Assembly: GCA_963676615.1 (NCBI GenBank)
Contig: OY781092.1
Span: 973,745-1,037,744, forward strand
DNA: 64,000 bases
From: Candidatus Cloacimonadota bacterium
Lineage (GTDB): Bacteria; Cloacimonadota; Cloacimonadia; G963667145
Direction: 5' to 3'
Shown: positions 1,965-56,271 of the stretch, piece after piece
How positions within the stretch are numbered: the stretch's first letter is position 1
How the letters are laid out: each line of letters opens with the position of its first letter
Translations under genes and position numbers: made by a program
The notes under the pieces: model-generated
Databases searched by the model: none
The model's input: only the letters and a program-made list of their open reading frames with translations
What the model was told of the DNA's origin: nothing

Positions 1965-3128
1965 CTACTGCTTGGACATCGAAACTCGCACCGTCGTGCC
2001 TTGTCCCAGCTGACTTTGCACCGCAATCTGCCAGCCGTGCTTTTCCACAATTTTCTTCACAATTGCAAGCCCCAAGCCAGTATTATCAACCGTTTTGGAG
2101 CGCGAGCTATCTCCCACAAAAAATCGCTGAAAAATTTTCGGCAAATTTTCCTTAGAAATCCCAACTCCAGAATCTGCTATCTGCAAAAAAACACCGCCGC
2201 TGGCATCTTCGCCAACCTCCACCAAAATCTGCCCCTGATGCGTATATTTCACCGCATTGCTCAAAAGATTCACCACCACCTGCTGCAAACGAAAAAAATC
2301 CGCCTGAACCTCCACCTTTGGCTGCGCAAACTTGGTCTTTATCGGAATTTTACTATTGGGAAACAAAAGCGTGCTCTCCTGCACAATCGCCACCAAATCG
2401 ACCTGCTCCAACTCCAGCGACACGCCCGATTCCACCGTCGCCAGCTGCAAAATATCGTCCACCAACTGCTTCAGCCGCTCGGCGTTCCGCTTGAGAATCG
2501 TCAAAACCTTATCGTCCCCCGCAGGCAAAAGCTCCAAAAACCCGCTAATCGTCGTAAGAGGCGTCTTTAGCTCGTGCGAAATATTTATCAAAAGATCTTT
2601 TTTGAGAAGCTGCAACTCATACAGCTGACTAATGTCCTGCAAAACGAACACCTTGCCGCCAGAGGGCAAATTCGAGCCACCAGCCACAAAATGTTTTTCG
2701 TTCAACTTAATATTTTTCGTGCTTTGACTGTCCGCATCAAAATCGTCCACAAAGCGAAAAAGCTCGGGAAAATCTATCAAATTCCAGTAAAAATCTGGCT
2801 CGAAATCTTTGTCCAAAAGCTCACAAAAAGCACTGTTTCCTCGCAAAATAATGCCCTGCTCGTTCTGAATCCAAACAGGAGACGGCAAAAATTGCAACAC
2901 CCCTTTCAGATCGTCCTTTTCCCGCAAAGCCAACTGTTTAGCCTGCTTTCCCTGCCCTTTTAGCTCCTGCAAATAAAGCGACCACGCCTTGCCTTTTTGC
3001 CTCTTGCTGATTTTTCCTTCCAAAGCCAGCTGCTGCAAAGCTCCAAGCAGTTGCAAATAGCGCCAGCGAAAAAACAGCCAACCAGCCAAAAAAACGCCAG
3101 CCAGCGTTGCCAAAAACCAAATCACCAC
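1965..3128 (-). CDS. Sensor histidine kinase
   Basis: It has an N-terminal TM helix, an H-box (ELKTPLTTISGFLELL) and a HATPase G-box (GLGLAIVKKIVEKHGW). It overlaps the upstream response-regulator gene by 7 nt. Confidence 0.85.
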   Translation of the reverse strand: MVIWFLATLAGVFLAGWLFFRWRYLQLLGALQQLALEGKISKRQKGKAWSLYLQELKGQGKQAKQLALREKDDLKGVLQFLPSPVWIQNEQGIILRGNSAFCELLDKDFEPDFYWNLIDFPELFRFVDDFDADSQSTKNIKLNEKHFVAGGSNLPSGGKVFVLQDISQLYELQLLKKDLLINISHELKTPLTTISGFLELLPAGDDKVLTILKRNAERLKQLVDDILQLATVESGVSLELEQVDLVAIVQESTLLFPNSKIPIKTKFAQPKVEVQADFFRLQQVVVNLLSNAVKYTHQGQILVEVGEDASGGVFLQIADSGVGISKENLPKIFQRFFVGDSSRSKTVDNTGLGLAIVKKIVEKHGWQIAVQSQLGQGTTVRVSMSKQ

Positions 3129-3823
3129 AGCTCCAATCTGTATCCAACCGAGCGAACTCCCGATATTTTCAGAGATTTTAGCTTGCTCCGCAGCTTTGCA
3201 ATGTGCACATCCACCGTCCGATCACTCACGATTTTATCTTGCCCCCACACAAAATCCAAAATTTTCTCCCGCGAAAAAACCGCACCAATTTTGCTCGAAA
3301 GCAGCTTCAAAATCGAAAACTCGGCGAAAGTCAAAGCGACCGCTTCACCATTTTCCAAAACCAAATGCGCATCAAAATCGATGCGCACAGATTGTCCCAA
3401 ACTCCGCACTTTTTCCTGCGGTTTTTGCTCGTTTTTTTGTGAAAAATCCCGCTGACGACGCAAAAAGGCTCGCACCCTTGCCAGCAACTCCTTGGGATGA
3501 AAAGGCTTGGTAATATAGTCGTCTGCGCCAAGCTCCAGCCCAAGCACCTTGTCCGTGATGTCGCCTCTGGCAGTGAGCATCAGCACAAAAACCTGCGGAA
3601 AAGCTTTTTTCAAATCTTTGCAAATCTCAAGACCGTCTTTGCCAGGCAGCATCAAATCCAAAACCACCAAGTCTGGCAGCTGCGCTATCACAGCGTCCTC
3701 AAAATCCCGATAATCCGCAAAAGTCTGAAGCACAAAATTCGCATCGGCAAGGCTGGCGCGCACCAGCTCCAAAATATCTGGCTCATCGTCCAAAACATAA
3801 ATCAGCTTTTTCACTTTCGACAT
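3122..3823 (-). CDS. OmpR/PhoB-family response regulator with a winged-helix output domain
   Basis: The receiver domain carries conserved Asp residues (VLDDEPD ... LVVLDLMLPGKDG). The C-terminus is a trans_reg_C-like winged helix (RTVDVHIAKLRSKL). Confidence 0.85.
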   Translation of the reverse strand: MSKVKKLIYVLDDEPDILELVRASLADANFVLQTFADYRDFEDAVIAQLPDLVVLDLMLPGKDGLEICKDLKKAFPQVFVLMLTARGDITDKVLGLELGADDYITKPFHPKELLARVRAFLRRQRDFSQKNEQKPQEKVRSLGQSVRIDFDAHLVLENGEAVALTFAEFSILKLLSSKIGAVFSREKILDFVWGQDKIVSDRTVDVHIAKLRSKLKSLKISGVRSVGYRLELW

Positions 3824-3844
3824 TCAATTTTCCACATTTTTTAA

Positions 3845-4318
3845 TTAGACGACGCCGGGATAAAAATTTTGCACAAGTTCCAGCAAAAACCGCAAAATCC
3901 GAGACGACGCCACCGCAGGATTTTGCAAGAGATTGTAATCGAAAAAAATATTGAAGCCAACAGAAAGCAGCGCCACAATTCCCAAAAATAAAAGCACAAT
4001 GAATAGAGCGCCCAAAATCTTATCGTAAATTCCTAAGTCCAAAAAATCCAATCCTTTACGAATATAGACGCTAAAAATTTTGAGCAAAATCACGACCGCC
4101 AAAAAAATCAAAACGAAAGCAATCAACTTGCCCACAAAAACAGAAAGCCCAAACTCGTTTGCAAAAATTCCAGCCAAAACATCGCCAAAAAATACGCCGA
4201 AAACGACTGTGCCGACCACCGCCAGCACCTTGGTCAAAAAGCTGACAAACCCTTTGATGAAGCCATATACAAACAAGCCAAAGCCCAAAATCAACAAGAC
4301 AATATCTAAAATATTCAT
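3845..4318 (-). CDS. cvpA: CvpA-family membrane protein (colicin V production protein-like)
   Basis: The protein starts MNILDIVLLILGFGLFVYGFIKGF and has several TM helices, a typical CvpA N-terminus. The start is chosen at the internal Met of the track ORF. Confidence 0.6.
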   Translation of the reverse strand: MNILDIVLLILGFGLFVYGFIKGFVSFLTKVLAVVGTVVFGVFFGDVLAGIFANEFGLSVFVGKLIAFVLIFLAVVILLKIFSVYIRKGLDFLDLGIYDKILGALFIVLLFLGIVALLSVGFNIFFDYNLLQNPAVASSRILRFLLELVQNFYPGVV

Positions 4319-46796: not shown

Positions 46797-47246
46797 TTAT
46801 TTTTGAACTCTCTCCACTTGCTCCAGCTGCCGAGCTGACCAATTATTTTTGCAAGCCTCTTCGATGTAATAAGTTCGCCTATCCTCGTCAACAATGCGTA
46901 TAAGCTGCTTGTATTGCGTCCAATTCAATTGCGCACGCACCTCGTGCGCAATTGGAAAAGCCTTATAAAACTGACGACTCATCTCCAGCTGACGAACGCT
47001 AAAACCGCTACCAAAATCTTTGCTCAATTCCGCAGAAAGATGCTTTATCAAAAAAGCGCCATACTCCGCTCTCTCCCGCTCATTCTGCTCCTGCACAAAA
47101 ATCTTTTGCCCAATCTTCCAATACATCATCACCCGCGCAAAATCGATAGCACGCACCGCCTTTTGCTGAGCATTCGAGATAATCGATTTTATCTCCTGAA
47201 CAAACCCAGACGAAAAATTTTTCCTCGTTTCAATCTCCATCGTCAA
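46797..47246 (-). CDS. DUF1016 (YhcG-like) N-terminal domain protein, apparently lacking the C-terminal PD-(D/E)xK nuclease domain
   Basis: It has AVRAIDFARVMMYWKIGQKI ... GFSVRQLEMSRQFY ... NWSARQLE, the YhcG N-terminal pattern. It is only 149 aa. Confidence 0.5.
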   Translation of the reverse strand: MTMEIETRKNFSSGFVQEIKSIISNAQQKAVRAIDFARVMMYWKIGQKIFVQEQNERERAEYGAFLIKHLSAELSKDFGSGFSVRQLEMSRQFYKAFPIAHEVRAQLNWTQYKQLIRIVDEDRRTYYIEEACKNNWSARQLEQVERVQK

Positions 47247-50366: not shown

Positions 50367-51272
50367 TGCAATCCTCCTGCTTTTCCAAACAAAATTTCTT
50401 CACATTAAAACTTTCGTCTCTTCATTTCTGTCAAGAGTTGTTTTGGCGCTACAAGAGAATTTCTCCCAAAAGCGTTACTTTTATTCAGCATTTTTTTATT
50501 GGTCTTGACACAAATAGAGAAATTTATCGAATTGGGAAAAGGTTAGAAAAGGGAATAAATGGACAAAATGTTGGATATAACACCAAATTGGAAGGCTAAA
50601 CGATATGTGGAGTTTGGTTAGTTGTGATAAAACATTTAAGGAGACTGACATAACTATGAATGGATTCCAAAGACCTGCACCAAAAACGAGAGATTCAATA
50701 AAAAATTTTTGCAAATCAATAGATTGTGAAGTTGGGGCACAAACAATTAATAGCATAATAGAATAATCAGACCTAATTTAGTGATTTTTGTGTCAAAATT
50801 TTCTTGGGACAAATTAAGGTGCAAAATTCCAAAATCAGAATTAAAGGTGAAATATGACTTTGTTTGTCATCCAGGAACAGGCGGTCTTTATTGGCATAAT
50901 AAGAATTATAATCACGGTGTGAAAAAATTTAAATCATTATATAGAAGAGAAAATAATAAAGCCCTCAAATAACATTTTGTATAAGTAATGGCAAGCAATG
51001 TGGTAAATATTAAGGCTTGTAGCCCGATCAAACTACGTAGCGGTTTAATAGGTTTGCTCTCCGAAATGCCAAACATTTCATATACTCACCGTTAGGCATA
51101 AGCTAAAAAAAACAGCGAATATAAAATATAAACTAAGAATTATTAAAAAAATCAATGCACAAACACACATTTAGTTTTGCCGACCAGAAAACCAAACCCT
51201 GAAAAACCCAAAGAGCTATTTTTTAGCCAGCGCACGAAAAATAATTATAAATTTGTAATTAAAGAGTTTAAA

Positions 51273-53465
51273 ATGAGTATAGAACAAGGAATTAATTCCA
51301 TACGAGAAAGTAATAAAAAGGTTGAAACTCAACAATGGTTTCAAAAACTTATTCAGACAGATGAATATGTTGGTGATTTGTATTCCATAAACTATGAAAC
51401 TGCGCGAGTAATAATTCATGACTTCTACAGAGAAAAAGTAGGAGGAATTCCAAGTTTGAGTTTCTTAATTGCTTCAAGAGTTGACCCAAATAATTCAGAA
51501 ATTGACTTTAAAACAGAGGATGCATCATTTATTCTTTTAAGAGTAATGGATGCAGCTGCACTTCCACAAGACAGAGAAGCTGAAAGAATTAGAGTTGAAA
51601 CAGCACAAAGAATAAGTGGTGAAACTGAAAAAAATTGGGATGAAGCAGGTTCAATGGATTTAAGAACAAAAAATCTGTTAAGTTTTGCTGGTGTGCAATG
51701 CAGAATAATCGGAACATTTTATCTCGAAGAAAATGGACAAAATGGAGAAGCACCACTTAATTTAAAATTCGGTAGTGACATTTCAAATTATTATCCAAAC
51801 AGAGGATTAAAAGTTTATAAACCAAATGGAAAGGCTCTTGAGTTAATTGTAAATTATTCTGACCCTTCAAATATTCAAGCACACATTGAAAAATATGGAA
51901 ATACAGAAAATGTAAAATTGGGTTTTGTAAGATATGCTTCAACAAATAGGAAATATCAGCAAATTGATGATGTCCCTGTTTATATTTATCCAGCAGACCT
52001 TCTATCTCAAAAATCTGCCTTGTTTGGAATGACAAGAACAGGGAAATCCAATACTACTAAAATAATTGCGAAATCTGTTTTTGAATTACGAAATGCACAA
52101 CAGTCTGGAGAAAAGCCATTAAGAATTGGGCAAATAATTTTTGACCCTAACGGTGAATATGCAAATGAAAACACACAGGATAAGGATGGCAGTGGAAATC
52201 CAAATGCACTCAAAAATATTTGGAAAAAAAACGAAACTTTAAAAAATGTAGCTGATAACTTAAAACAACAATATATCCAAGAGAAAGACATTGAAGATAA
52301 AAAAAGACTATGGAATGAAATTAAGACGTTGATTGATTCTGAAGTGGTTACTTTTGGTATTTTACCTCATCCAAATGATCCTGGCAGGAAGAGAATGCTA
52401 CTAAATTTCTATCTTGATGATAATTTACCTATTGGTAAAGAAATTATAAATTCTCTTTTGTCTGACGATACCACAATATATATAAAGAATTTTTTGCAGG
52501 TAAATTTGGAAAAACCTGACGAAAATGATAAGAGTGCAATGACAAGATATAAGAGAAGAGTTTTAGCATATCGTTCAGTTCTTGCACGAGCAGGTTTTCC
52601 TGTACCAGAAAAATTTAATGTTTCAGTAAAAAGTTTGTTTAATAAGGATTTATTGAATGCGATGGAAAATAGTAAAAGTGATAATTCGGTAGAATATAAA
52701 TCTGGGGCAAAAGTTTTTAAAGAAGAGAATCCTACTTTGCAACAATTAGCTGGTGCATTTGAATCACTTGATAAATTTATTCGCGAAAATAAAGAATACA
52801 AAATTTTTGAAACTGATTATGTTCAAAATTCAAAATCAGGTAATGCTTGGGCGGATGAGGATTTGAAAAAAATTATTGGGATTTTCCAATATCCAAATGG
52901 TACACGAAAAATTGGTAAAGCAGTAGAGCAACATAGTGCTGATACAACATGTGACTATGCAGATGATATTTATAATGATTTAAAAAACGGGAAACTTGTA
53001 ATTATTGATCAGTCAAGTGGAGATTCAGAGTTAAATGAGTCTTCAGCAAAAAGAGTGATGAAAAAAATATTTGATGAAAATAAAAATCTTTTTACATTGG
53101 GGAAAATTCCCCCCGATATAATGGTATATGTTGAAGAGGCACATAATATTTTACCATCTGATAAAGAAAAAGACTTAAAAGACATTTGGGTAAGAACAGC
53201 AAAAGAAGGAGCTAAATTGCATATAGGACTTGTTTACGCTACCCAAGAAGTAAGTAGTATTCAAAGAAATATTTTAAAAAATACAGCGAATTGGTTTATA
53301 AGCCATTTAAACAATACAGATGAAACCAAAGAACTCTGCAAGTACTATGACTTTGCAGACTTTGAACCGTCAATAAGGCGAGCACAGGATAAGGGCTTTT
53401 TAAGAGTTAAAACATTAAGCAATCTGTTTGTAATTCCTGTTCAAGTTGACAAATTTGAGGTTTAA
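51273..53465 (+). CDS. HerA/DUF87-family P-loop ATPase (FtsK-HerA superfamily)
   Basis: Walker A is FGMTRTGKSNTTK, followed by DPNGEY. Walker B is IMVYVEEAHNIL and the sensor motif is YATQEV. The N-terminal roughly 250 aa look like a HAS-barrel. The gene is very AT-rich. The start is chosen at MSIEQG (ATG 51273). Confidence 0.65.
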   Translation: MSIEQGINSIRESNKKVETQQWFQKLIQTDEYVGDLYSINYETARVIIHDFYREKVGGIPSLSFLIASRVDPNNSEIDFKTEDASFILLRVMDAAALPQDREAERIRVETAQRISGETEKNWDEAGSMDLRTKNLLSFAGVQCRIIGTFYLEENGQNGEAPLNLKFGSDISNYYPNRGLKVYKPNGKALELIVNYSDPSNIQAHIEKYGNTENVKLGFVRYASTNRKYQQIDDVPVYIYPADLLSQKSALFGMTRTGKSNTTKIIAKSVFELRNAQQSGEKPLRIGQIIFDPNGEYANENTQDKDGSGNPNALKNIWKKNETLKNVADNLKQQYIQEKDIEDKKRLWNEIKTLIDSEVVTFGILPHPNDPGRKRMLLNFYLDDNLPIGKEIINSLLSDDTTIYIKNFLQVNLEKPDENDKSAMTRYKRRVLAYRSVLARAGFPVPEKFNVSVKSLFNKDLLNAMENSKSDNSVEYKSGAKVFKEENPTLQQLAGAFESLDKFIRENKEYKIFETDYVQNSKSGNAWADEDLKKIIGIFQYPNGTRKIGKAVEQHSADTTCDYADDIYNDLKNGKLVIIDQSSGDSELNESSAKRVMKKIFDENKNLFTLGKIPPDIMVYVEEAHNILPSDKEKDLKDIWVRTAKEGAKLHIGLVYATQEVSSIQRNILKNTANWFISHLNNTDETKELCKYYDFADFEPSIRRAQDKGFLRVKTLSNLFVIPVQVDKFEV

Positions 53466-53476
53466 ACAGTATTTAT

Positions 53477-54865
53477 ATGGGATTTGAAGGAGAATTTGCC
53501 AGTTATGAGCCATTAAGGCGAATGCTTGATAGTGATAAAGTTAAATCACTCCAAGACAGACTGAAAATACGAAAACAAGAAGAAGAAACAGATACTTTTA
53601 CTGGCTCAATTGTTAAAAAGTCAGACTTGACTGAAAGTTCAATTCAACCAGATTTAGTTTTAGCTATTGATGGAAGTAATTTAGTGGCTAAAGCTGAAAA
53701 TGGTTTCCCAGGTGCAGAATTTGGTTATATTACAATAGCTTCTGTTTTAATAGATTTAAAGTTAATAGACAATTTAGAAAAGAAAAAGTTTATTGATCCA
53801 AAAAAAGTTAGAGAAACTGAAAAGGCATCAACAATAGAAAGTGTTTTTCCTGGGTGCAATGTAATATTAGATAACGAAAAAAATGCAAAAGCTTCAATTC
53901 GAAGAGCATTATTTGAAGAATTAAAAAGCAATACAATATTTGCGAATGGCGGAGAAACCTTATTGGGTACATACGAATATTTGTTCAGAATAAAGAGGGA
54001 ATATTTCTCCGAAATCCGCCTTCCAAGAAGCCCTATTGATGGTATTGATGATGAAATGACTTATGGATATGGTGAATATAATTGCCCTCATTCAGGAGAA
54101 AAACTATACTCAACTGATGCTTTGCGCTTACACGAATTAATGAATCCTGGTGGAACTAATGGAGAAATGTTTGGGCAAATAATGTCAACTCTTGAAAAAC
54201 TTTGGTTAGTTCACATACTTAGAGCCTTTGAACAAAAAAAATGGTTGTCAACACTTCGGAGAGTAGCATTTATTATGGATGGGCCATTAGCTGTATTTAG
54301 TACTTCATCATGGTTAACTAAAGTAATTAATTATGAATTAAATAGACTAAATGATTTGCAGAAAGCAGTTAACGGTCAGGATTTATTAATTATCGGTATT
54401 GAAAAATCAGGGACATTCGTAAATCATTTCGAGGAAATTGATACGACTAAAGATGGAGTTAGAGATAAATTCCCTAAACAATCAGCATTACTTCTTGATG
54501 ATGGATATATAAAAAGAAATATTATTTTTTCTGAAAGCATAAAACCATATGGTCAGGACACCTATTTTGGAAGGAAAATATTTTATAAAACTGCCTCTGG
54601 ACAAAAAATAGTTGCTGCAACTGCATTTTTGAGAAGCTTTTCTTCAGATAAAGAATTTTCCGAATATTTAGATTCTAGTAATCCTGTTAATTTTTCAAGA
54701 CTTCCAGATGTTATGAATTTACTTGATAAATTGGTTTCAAGTAGATACCCAAATTCCGTTTCACCTTTAGTATCAGCTCATGCAGAAGCAGCAATTCCTT
54801 TAAATTTAGGTAAACGTATATTTGAGGATATTGCAAGAGAAATAAGAGAAAATTCAAAACTATGA
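53477..54865 (+). CDS. NurA-like nuclease (RNase-H-like fold)
   Basis: It has LVLAIDGSNL near the N-terminus (catalytic-Asp motif) and later FIMDGPLAV. At 462 aa it lies immediately downstream of the HerA-like gene. Confidence 0.5.
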   Translation: MGFEGEFASYEPLRRMLDSDKVKSLQDRLKIRKQEEETDTFTGSIVKKSDLTESSIQPDLVLAIDGSNLVAKAENGFPGAEFGYITIASVLIDLKLIDNLEKKKFIDPKKVRETEKASTIESVFPGCNVILDNEKNAKASIRRALFEELKSNTIFANGGETLLGTYEYLFRIKREYFSEIRLPRSPIDGIDDEMTYGYGEYNCPHSGEKLYSTDALRLHELMNPGGTNGEMFGQIMSTLEKLWLVHILRAFEQKKWLSTLRRVAFIMDGPLAVFSTSSWLTKVINYELNRLNDLQKAVNGQDLLIIGIEKSGTFVNHFEEIDTTKDGVRDKFPKQSALLLDDGYIKRNIIFSESIKPYGQDTYFGRKIFYKTASGQKIVAATAFLRSFSSDKEFSEYLDSSNPVNFSRLPDVMNLLDKLVSSRYPNSVSPLVSAHAEAAIPLNLGKRIFEDIAREIRENSKL

Positions 54866-55989
54866 TAGTTTTAAATGATGTTTTAAAAGGGCGTAGTACT
54901 GCAGAAGCACGATGGGCAAGATTTGGTCCATATTATGCGATGTTTCCTGTAGATTTTGCTTTTGAAGTTGTTCAAAAATATTCAAAAGAGGGTGATTATA
55001 TAATAGATCCTTTTGCTGGAAGATGCAGTAGTATATATGCTGGGGGTGTTCTTGGTCGAGTTAGTTTAGGAATTGAAATTAATCCAGTTGGATGGCTTTT
55101 TGGAAAAGTAAAACTTCGACCTGCAAAAAAAGATCTTGTAATTGCAAGGTTGCTTGAGATTTATAAAAAAAGAGATTGTTATAGTTTAGCAATTGAAAAA
55201 ATGCTTGAATTTTATCGTATTTGTTATTGTGATGAGGTTTTAAAATTTTTATTAGCAGCAAGAGAAAATCTTGATTGGGAAAATAACAGTATTGATGCTT
55301 CCCTTATGTCTATTCTTTTGGTTTACTTACATGGTAAATTAGGAGAAGGCTTGTCAAATCAAATGAGAATGACAAAATCAATGGGAATGAACTATTCTGT
55401 TAAGTGGTGGAAGAAGAATGGTTTTATAAATCCGCCTGAAATTAATCCTTATGAATTTATTCTTAAGAAGATTGAATGGAGGTATGAAAAAGGTACACCA
55501 AGTATTACTGAAAGTGATGTTGTTTTTGGAGATAGCACTATTGAATTAAAAAAAATTGTCCAAAGAGCAGAGAGAAATAATATAAAATTTTCTTTACTTT
55601 TTACATCTCCGCCTTATTATTCAATTACGAATTATCATGCTGATCAATGGCTTAGAATATGGCTTTTAGGTGGGGCAGAAAATCCTCATTCATTTAATGC
55701 CAAATATAAAGGACGCTTTGGAAATAAACAAGAATATTATAATTTGCTTGATAGTGTATTTGGATATTCTTCTAAATTAATGGGGAAAGATAGTGCAATT
55801 TATGTTCGCACAGATAAAAGAGAATTTACTTTTAATTCAACTTTAGAAATATTAAAAAAACATTTTCCACATCATAAAATACAACTTATTGAAAAACCAC
55901 TGGATAATAATACTAAAACACAAACTAAATTATATGGAGATAAATCAATAAAGCCAGGGGAAGTAGATATAATATTGACAATAAAGTAA
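54862..55989 (+). CDS. DNA methyltransferase (N6-adenine / N4-cytosine type, SPPY motif)
   Basis: It has the SAM motif IIDPFAGRCSS and later the catalytic LLFTSPPYYSITNY. Its start overlaps the stop of the NurA-like gene (ATGA). Confidence 0.65.
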   Translation: MIVLNDVLKGRSTAEARWARFGPYYAMFPVDFAFEVVQKYSKEGDYIIDPFAGRCSSIYAGGVLGRVSLGIEINPVGWLFGKVKLRPAKKDLVIARLLEIYKKRDCYSLAIEKMLEFYRICYCDEVLKFLLAARENLDWENNSIDASLMSILLVYLHGKLGEGLSNQMRMTKSMGMNYSVKWWKKNGFINPPEINPYEFILKKIEWRYEKGTPSITESDVVFGDSTIELKKIVQRAERNNIKFSLLFTSPPYYSITNYHADQWLRIWLLGGAENPHSFNAKYKGRFGNKQEYYNLLDSVFGYSSKLMGKDSAIYVRTDKREFTFNSTLEILKKHFPHHKIQLIEKPLDNNTKTQTKLYGDKSIKPGEVDIILTIK

Positions 55990-56271
55990 AGTCAATGCTA
56001 AAGCCAATCACATTTGCAATTCACACAGACCACCTCTTGACCCAAAATTGCAAAAGAATATTTCTCACCAATGCACCGTAGAAAGTGAAAATAGTAGCAA
56101 ATTTGAAAGATAAAATGATTGCTCTAAAAGAAATTAGAAAAGGTTCAAGACAACATTACAAGTGTTAGACACAAGCTAGCTGTCTTGACCCAAAAAACCT
56201 TCTCTTCAATAAAAAAAGAGCCTCCAAAAAAATGAAGACTCTTTAAGTTTTTTAAGATTTTAAAATCAGCT

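Follow-up and report, generated by a model that had tools for sequence, protein, structure and literature searches.

The stretch of DNA analysed here, referred to as the window, comprises 64,000 nucleotides of a Candidatus Cloacimonadota bacterium (assembly GCA_963676615.1, contig OY781092.1, positions 973,745 to 1,037,744 of the forward strand). The open reading frame (ORF) at 51273-53465 encodes a protein of 730 amino acids (aa), a genuine member of the HerA clade of ATPases that is of the TdpA type and has an enlarged helical-bundle (HB) domain. The gene lies in a mobile cassette together with genes for a NurA-family nuclease and a DNA methyltransferase (methylase), and the HB domain of the window copy has been exchanged by recombination. 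We propose that the cassette encodes an ATP-dependent defence system resembling restriction-modification, and we assign this joint reading a probability of about 0.6.

The 730 aa protein is a HerA-family ATPase

The reading frame is intact and translated without stops. Its ATG at 51273 is the true start, since homologues share both this ATG and the N-terminus MSIEQG. The following features of the protein, all on the + strand, were located:

51273..53465 (+): TdpA-like HerA-family ATPase, complete gene
51273..51962 (+): N-terminal helix (aa 2-26), then a HAS-barrel-like beta domain containing inserted helices (as far as about aa 230)
52026..52055 (+): Walker A, GMTRTGKSNT (aa 252-261, K258)
52143..52160 (+): HerA motif, DPNGEY (aa 291-296)
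52224..52340 (+): optional charged helical hairpin (aa 318-356), delimited by alignment gaps and the structure model
52353..52982 (+): enlarged HB domain (aa 361-570), a recombining block whose most variable core is aa 441-535
52926..52943 (+): EQHSAD motif with His554 (aa 552-557), on the C-terminal border of the helical domain
53124..53147 (+): Walker B, VYVEEAHN (aa 618-625, E622)
53187..53249 (+): candidate arginine finger R641 and sensor-1 glutamine Q658

Pfam assigned the protein to the HerA central domain DUF87 (2.8e-12). Among proteins of known structure, TdpA, the motor of a restriction complex (TdpAB) that senses phosphorothioate, is nearest to it (2.1e-14 from the single sequence, 3.4e-45 from the family profile) and matches best by sequence, profile and fold, but with an identity of only 16-21%. 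In PHROGs, the only matches were one family of unknown function and a distant terminase ATPase. The two Walker motifs fall on the P-loop and Walker B when aligned with TdpA and with the HerA proteins from S. solfataricus and T. kodakarensis, and DPNGEY aligns to the D-x-x-G-E-Y motif of TdpA, S. solfataricus HerA and the SIR2-associated HerA.

Conservation of the catalytic residues was determined in 95 diverse relatives, with identities down to 28%. R255, K258 and E295 are invariant (95/95), showing that the Walker A is not a spurious GKS/T match; E621 is kept in 92 relatives, E622 in 94 and H624 in 92 to 94. Q658, present in 94 of the 95, is located at the end of strand 651-657 in the structure model, and R641 (80/95) in the helix preceding this strand. 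In HerA/FtsK ATPases, core strand 4 characteristically ends in a sensor-1 glutamine, and the arginine finger lies just upstream (PMC10853773). The protein thus combines Walker A and B motifs, D-x-x-G-E-Y and a sensor-1 glutamine with an upstream arginine, and it has the domain plan of the family, an N-terminal HAS barrel and a helical bundle inside a RecA-like core.

These results bear out the original prediction, which had been made from the sequence alone and described a HerA-like ATPase with a barrel-like N-terminal region and a Walker A followed by DPNGEY. Its placement of the two Walker motifs near residues 285 and 640 does not apply to the frame starting at 51273; it agrees with a longer frame starting with TTG at 51177, in which they lie at 284 and 650. 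One further residue, His554, is invariant in the 95 relatives and, according to the profile alignment, also conserved in TdpA (FHAPG), though it borders the hypervariable helical domain.

The motif spacing reflects an enlarged helical-bundle domain

The distance from Walker A to Walker B had been noted as unusually long, and indeed 364 residues separate K258 from E622. The corresponding spacing is 202 residues in S. solfataricus HerA, 250 in T. kodakarensis HerA and 275 in TdpA. Among the 95 diverse members of the family it ranges from 297 to 381 (median 327), and among 93 cassette-borne relatives from 325 to 381 (median 335), so that the long spacing is a trait of the family. The extra length is real, and the interpretation as an insertion inside the ATPase core was supported in part. 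All HerA proteins carry an HB domain in their RecA-like core; it is flexible and presumed to bind DNA, and the docking site of NurA is the HAS face (PMC12977600). In our profile alignment, residues 186-271 of S. solfataricus HerA, its HB domain, lie opposite approximately aa 300-542 of the window protein. TdpA aligns over the first and last thirds of the HB domain, and about 70 profile positions in the middle are absent from it.

The structure was modelled as a monomer from the diverse 95-sequence alignment (predicted local distance difference test, pLDDT, 94.6); an earlier model from 27 close homologues was poor (pLDDT 59.6) and was not used. The model is all-helical between aa 382 and 571, where it shows ten helices with pLDDT >90. 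Ordinary core elements between the motifs are the strands 286-291, 358-362 and 575-579 and the helix 585-608. Because the profile alignment places the S. solfataricus HB domain opposite this region and the model is all-helical there, the long spacing is best described as an enlarged standard HB domain, predicted at the position where HerA proteins carry their four-helix bundle.

The only unusual feature between the motifs is the 39-residue hairpin at aa 318-356, modelled as two helices (321-336 and 340-355). Alignment gaps take its place in 92-98% of the diverse family, and 11 of the 93 cassette HerA proteins possess it. The description of the whole insertion as acidic and lysine-rich holds for this hairpin (K 20%, D+E 21%) and not for the rest of the inter-motif region, which is unremarkable: over the inter-motif region as a whole, D+E amounts to 15.4% and K to 11.3%, compared with protein averages of 14.6% and 9.3%.

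The helical-bundle domain evolves as an exchangeable module

For 93 non-identical cassettes, pairwise protein distances were taken segment by segment and compared by Spearman correlation. The N-terminal and C-terminal parts of HerA, NurA and all parts of the methylase are strongly intercorrelated (0.63-0.93). HerA aa 361-570, hereafter the insert, is only weakly correlated with the rest of the cassette (about 0.3-0.4 as a block, 0.15-0.43 in 30-residue windows), and the boundaries of this block are sharp in the correlation scan. Mean pairwise distance is highest in the insert (0.46-0.55, against 0.20-0.31 for the core), and the insert distances are multimodal. Among 269 pairs with HerA cores that are <12% different, 51 have inserts that are >40% different; nearly identical cassettes can carry inserts differing by up to 60%, and one cluster of 36 near-identical backbones contains six insert types. 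TdpA lacks the stretch that varies most, aa 441-535. The length of the domain is kept at about 200 residues across >1,200 clusters.

The window HerA is itself a chimera, since the pattern of nucleotide identity to two sets of relatives switches at the insert. Compared with the relatives L040 and L067, the window sequence is 93-99% identical at aa 100-300 and 91-95% at aa 650-730; for aa 350-650, identity is 51-63% to L040 and 59-77% to L067. Conversely, identity to L031, L064 and L072 is 72-83% in the flanks and 77-88% in aa 350-550. The HB domain is thus a structured, exchangeable module with an evolutionary history of its own.

A second drop was observed at the start of the methylase gene (54862), where nucleotide identity to the closest backbones (L040, L067 and L069) falls from about 0.91 to 0.79. 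All relatives sampled differ from the window methylase by at least 21%; for the window NurA, the closest relative differs by only 9%. The methylase, too, may therefore have been exchanged as a module.

HerA, NurA and methylase form a conserved mobile cassette

The cassette and its two further genes have the following positions:

51046..56076 (+): mobile three-gene cassette (upstream region, HerA, NurA, methyltransferase and a short tail), delimited by DNA similarity
53477..54865 (+): NurA-family nuclease, 462 aa (Pfam NurA, 2e-29)
54862..55989 (+): DNA methyltransferase, 375 aa (Pfam N6_N4_Mtase, 2.8e-09; PADLOC Type II MTase, 6.5e-17)

A word-indexed search for the ATPase yielded >4,150 homologues, and an exhaustive search 1,262 clusters at 50% identity. 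Close relatives, 59-81% identical, are spread over Bacteroidota, Ignavibacteria, Caldisericales, Treponema, Fibrobacter, Alteromonas, Psychrobacter, Cloacimonadota and candidate-phyla bacteria, and the loci with all three genes include Gammaproteobacteria and the candidate phyla radiation. Every related locus with sufficient sequence downstream, about 40 from genomes and about 60 from metagenomes, has the genes in the order HerA-NurA-methylase. The same trio was found at 40-45% identity and, on a haloarchaeal plasmid, at 32% identity. In relatives of 27-37% identity a D12 (Dam-like) adenine methylase replaces the N6_N4 methylase; it is located immediately upstream in 6/6 viral contigs. Of two metagenome contigs, one has it upstream in divergent orientation and the other downstream, the latter within a restriction-modification island. 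An adjacent methylase was present in 12 of 14 informative distant contexts. Across hosts, a DNA-modifying enzyme is thus coupled to a nuclease, and the two are maintained together. A nuclease machine that is obligately coupled to a modifying enzyme, with non-orthologous replacement of the latter, is in comparative genomics the hallmark of restriction-modification-type systems.

The limits of the cassette follow from DNA similarity to unrelated genomes (L040, L067 and L069), which starts at 51046-51249 and stops at 55981-56076; the flanks are unrelated. The GC content of the cassette is 0.313 and that of the rest of the window 0.447, and its GC skew is +0.2, compared with -0.1 to -0.3 in the flanks. 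Since the GC content is 13 points lower and the skew is reversed, the sequence is consistent with a recent, un-ameliorated acquisition. The insertion site is not shared between the window and its closest relative, the Cloacimonadota chromosome L040. No phage or plasmid genes and no Mre11/Rad50 genes were detected near the cassette in the window, and a scan for promoters and terminators gave results no better than shuffled sequence. Elsewhere, related cassettes have an integrase, a C5-methylase pair, GmrSD, Vsr or a transposase as neighbours.

The methylase gene overlaps the NurA gene by 4 nt. The methylase carries the S-adenosylmethionine motif IIDPFAGRCSS at aa 47-57 and the catalytic motif TSPPYY at aa 248-253. 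The conserved residues of NurA are D65 (AIDGS), D214, D268 (DGPL), E309/K310 (GIEKSG) and H435. In addition, the NurA family has a zinc-ribbon-like CCCH element (window 54029-54136, NurA aa 185-220) with weak matches to C2H2 zinc fingers. In this element C185 is conserved in 15/20, C203 in 18/20, C206 in 12/20 and H219 in 19/20 sequences. The window NurA has serines at 185 and 206, and because these replace cysteines it has probably lost metal binding at this element.

Several individual loci and regions showed further features. In L150, the temperate Vibrio phage 10N.286.55.C4_PE001 (PQ189371.1), HerA, a NurA-like gene and a Type II methylase lie between the integrase and the excisionase, and the annotation of the record flags the methylase alone as a defence gene. 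On the Tolypothrix plasmid NZ_CP050441.1 (L144), HerA-NurA is preceded by a helix-turn-helix regulator and followed by an 816 aa protein combining an RNase_T exonuclease with a STAND-type NTPase. The phage-like contig L051 carries HerA-NurA with a 662 aa protein of unknown function, small genes and a DinG-like helicase. In the Candidatus Peribacteria contig L043, the NurA gene of the cassette (2792-4150) contains 18 in-frame stops under table 11, and HerA matches at full length. This suggests that the host reads a stop codon as sense, and that the cassette would therefore function across genetic codes.

The host + strand has an unusually strong negative GC skew (-0.1 to -0.3) throughout the window (1-64000), especially at 28000-50000. 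Next to the gene for isoleucyl-tRNA synthetase (IleRS), an ORF of 147-149 aa at 46797-47246 (-) matches only the N-terminal part of DUF1016, the YhcG-like nuclease family, and may be a remnant gene. Between the IleRS gene and the cassette, an AT-rich stretch at 50496-50972, not common to the closest cassettes, contains ORFs of 86 aa (-) and 63 aa (+); the former gave no Pfam or PADLOC match.

Proposed function and alternative explanations

The constant association of HerA-NurA with a methylase, together with the change of methylase class in distant relatives, suggests a system like restriction-modification. By sequence and by analogy, the trio looks like an undescribed, horizontally spread defence system of this type. 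We infer that it discriminates self from non-self as follows, on the model of HerA-NurA and TdpAB. The methylase would mark host DNA. A HerA hexamer carrying a NurA dimer on the side of its barrels would draw DNA through the ring, and DNA without the methyl mark would be degraded. In known HerA-NurA complexes, the HB domains encircle the pore opposite the HAS face on which NurA docks (PMC12977600); for this reason, the enlarged HB domain is expected at the DNA-entry face of the ring, as a variable collar. Since the domain evolves as an exchangeable and discretely variable module, an interface in conflict seems its most plausible role, and as such it might engage incoming or invader DNA or proteins, or escape phage inhibitors.

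Four results weigh against this proposal. A comparison of NurA with solved structures, using the single sequence and two profiles, gave no significant match to any solved NurA or TdpB; the best profile match, to TdpB over the N-terminal ~90 residues (1-96), was weak (E 0.037), and the others were zinc-finger noise. PADLOC did not recognise NurA and matched HerA only partially. Across the 93 cassettes, the insert did not co-vary with any NurA or methylase segment (maximum rho 0.50). Finally, the relatives on the Tolypothrix plasmid and in L051 have no recognisable methylase.

Four other explanations were considered. In archaea and Deinococcus, HerA-NurA resects DNA ends in double-strand break repair, and the window genes could serve the same housekeeping function, with the methylase as an unrelated neighbour. 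The adjacent genes do encode Pfam NurA and HerA domains, there is structural similarity to the HerA-NurA complexes of T. kodakarensis and D. radiodurans, and NCBI labels relatives as 'DNA double-strand break repair nuclease NurA'. A repair locus is nevertheless difficult to reconcile with a low-GC island of opposite GC skew, found patchily at 59-81% identity across unrelated phyla in differing genomic contexts and always with a methylase. Cassettes also occur on plasmids and prophages and beside integrases and restriction-modification genes, Mre11/Rad50 genes are missing nearby, and the NCBIfam models for repair HerA reach 44 bits against a cut-off of 800. We therefore regard housekeeping repair as very improbable. 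A selfish, phage-serving or addiction module, by which a mobile element destroys competing or host DNA and protects its own without benefit to the host, would fit the movement of the cassette as a 5 kb unit and the occurrence of relatives on viral contigs, a Vibrio temperate phage and plasmids. Its mechanism would be the same as that of the proposed defence system, with only the beneficiary differing, and the cassette in the window is not flanked by phage or plasmid genes; this alternative appears rather unlikely.

The remaining two concern the insert. If the enlarged helical domain read the methylated target in the manner of a target recognition domain, it would set the specificity of restriction and would have to match the methylase. 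In favour of this reading, the insert varies more than any other part of the protein and comes in discrete types that recombine as in Type I specificity subunits, and the HB domain of HerA is located on the DNA-entry side and is presumed to bind DNA (PMC12977600). No methylase window co-varies with it, however (rho 0.18-0.36 overall, at most 0.45 within the 36 near-identical backbones), and TdpA lacks the most variable sub-domain. An et al. reportedly found in 2025 that TdpA nevertheless senses the modification, and that TdpAB degrades unmodified DNA while modified DNA inhibits TdpA. Because of the missing co-variation, the insert does not look like a simple reader of a methyl motif matched to the methylase, and this role is unlikely. 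Alternatively, the insert may be a loosely constrained surface decoration that varies under relaxed selection and has no specific function. It does show the highest mean pairwise distance in the protein, and it sits at the position of the four-helix bundle, a domain that proved highly flexible when T. kodakarensis HerA was subjected to cryo-electron microscopy variability analysis (PMC12977600). Relaxed constraint predicts distances proportional to those of the backbone; discrete insert types, sharp boundaries and nucleotide mosaics were observed instead. The preserved length, the confidently modelled helices and the invariant His554 at the edge also argue against mere decoration, which we consider improbable.

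Beyond the proposed defence system of the window, the family may constitute a widespread, hitherto undescribed class of ATP-dependent restriction-modification systems, in which a TdpAB-like pair of HerA ring and NurA works with interchangeable methylases and a hypervariable DNA-entry collar, swapped by recombination irrespective of the methylase, provides a second, novel layer of specificity or of counter-counter-defence. This generalisation is tentative, and we hold it to be somewhat less probable than not. The TdpAB principle is said to be that of a HerA-type ring motor and a nuclease held in check by DNA modification. A working defence system of the kind proposed here would carry this principle beyond the rare phosphorothioate system of extremophiles to ordinary methylation of DNA, in a family of >1,200 sequence clusters distributed over many bacterial phyla, archaeal plasmids and prophages, and it would add a restriction machine that uses neither a superfamily 2 (SF2) helicase nor a PD-(D/E)xK nuclease. 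The recombining helical domain offers a testable handle on the role of the poorly understood HB domain of HerA and shows how such motors may diversify under phage pressure. Since current defence annotators seem to pick out the methylase alone at such loci, the family is probably under-counted. No description of a HerA-NurA-methylase system was found in PADLOC (2023) or in the full-text literature searched, subscription papers being out of reach. Work on HerA/FtsK 'capture' systems from the Aravind laboratory (including PMC10853773) describes other architectures and never mentions NurA.

Comparison with known systems

The HerA-NurA pairs of archaea and Deinococcus (PDB 4d2i, 9x1l/9x1m, 7f6d) share with the window proteins the HAS barrel, the RecA-like core with an HB insertion and the adjacent NurA gene. 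They differ in their motif spacing (202-250 residues, against 364 here); the window cassette, in turn, has no Mre11/Rad50 linkage, an obligate methylase and horizontal mobility.

In SIR2-HerA (Nezha) and DUF4297-HerA, a HerA hexamer is likewise the scaffold and motor of a defence complex. Foldseek matched these structures with E-values of 1e-15 to 1e-16, and the PADLOC HerA models partially match the window ATPase. Their effectors are SIR2 or DUF4297 and they have no modification enzyme, whereas the neighbours here are NurA and a methylase; the NCBIfam HerA_antiphage model gave 31.5 bits for the window ATPase against a cut-off of 800. MADS (mad1-8) was also considered and rejected, as only a partial match of mad8 to the ATPase core was obtained (5.8e-14) and no other mad genes were present among the neighbours tested.

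Type I and Type III restriction-modification systems also combine a methylase, an ATP-driven DNA translocase and a nuclease, and the target recognition domains of HsdS are a variable module exchanged by recombination. In the window system, however, the motor is a HerA/FtsK-type ring ATPase where those systems use an SF2 helicase, NurA (RNase H-like) takes the place of a PD-(D/E)xK nuclease, and the variable module, which belongs to the motor, shows no co-variation with the methylase.

The greatest likeness is to TdpABC (TdpA/TdpB, PDB 8wet and 8wfd; An et al. 2025, cited in PMC12914056), whose ATPase TdpA is, of all solved structures, the nearest to that of the window. Both ATPases have an HB domain larger than that of archaeal HerA, with conserved AGF-x-P and F-H-x-P motifs, and in both systems the ATPase gene lies beside a nuclease partner and a single DNA-modifying enzyme. 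In TdpABC this enzyme is TdpC, which alone makes the phosphorothioate at GATC (PMC12914056); here it is an S-adenosylmethionine-dependent methyltransferase of the N6_N4 type. The nucleases seem to differ as well, TdpB (375 aa) showing no significant similarity to the 462 aa Pfam NurA of the window beyond the weak N-terminal profile match, and the HB domain of the window ATPase has an additional hypervariable sub-domain, some 70-90 residues long, with no counterpart in TdpA. The host range here is broad and mesophilic, whereas Tdp has been reported from extremophilic bacteria (PMC12914056). Taken together, the analogy suggests that the HerA-NurA-methylase trio is a methylation counterpart of TdpABC.

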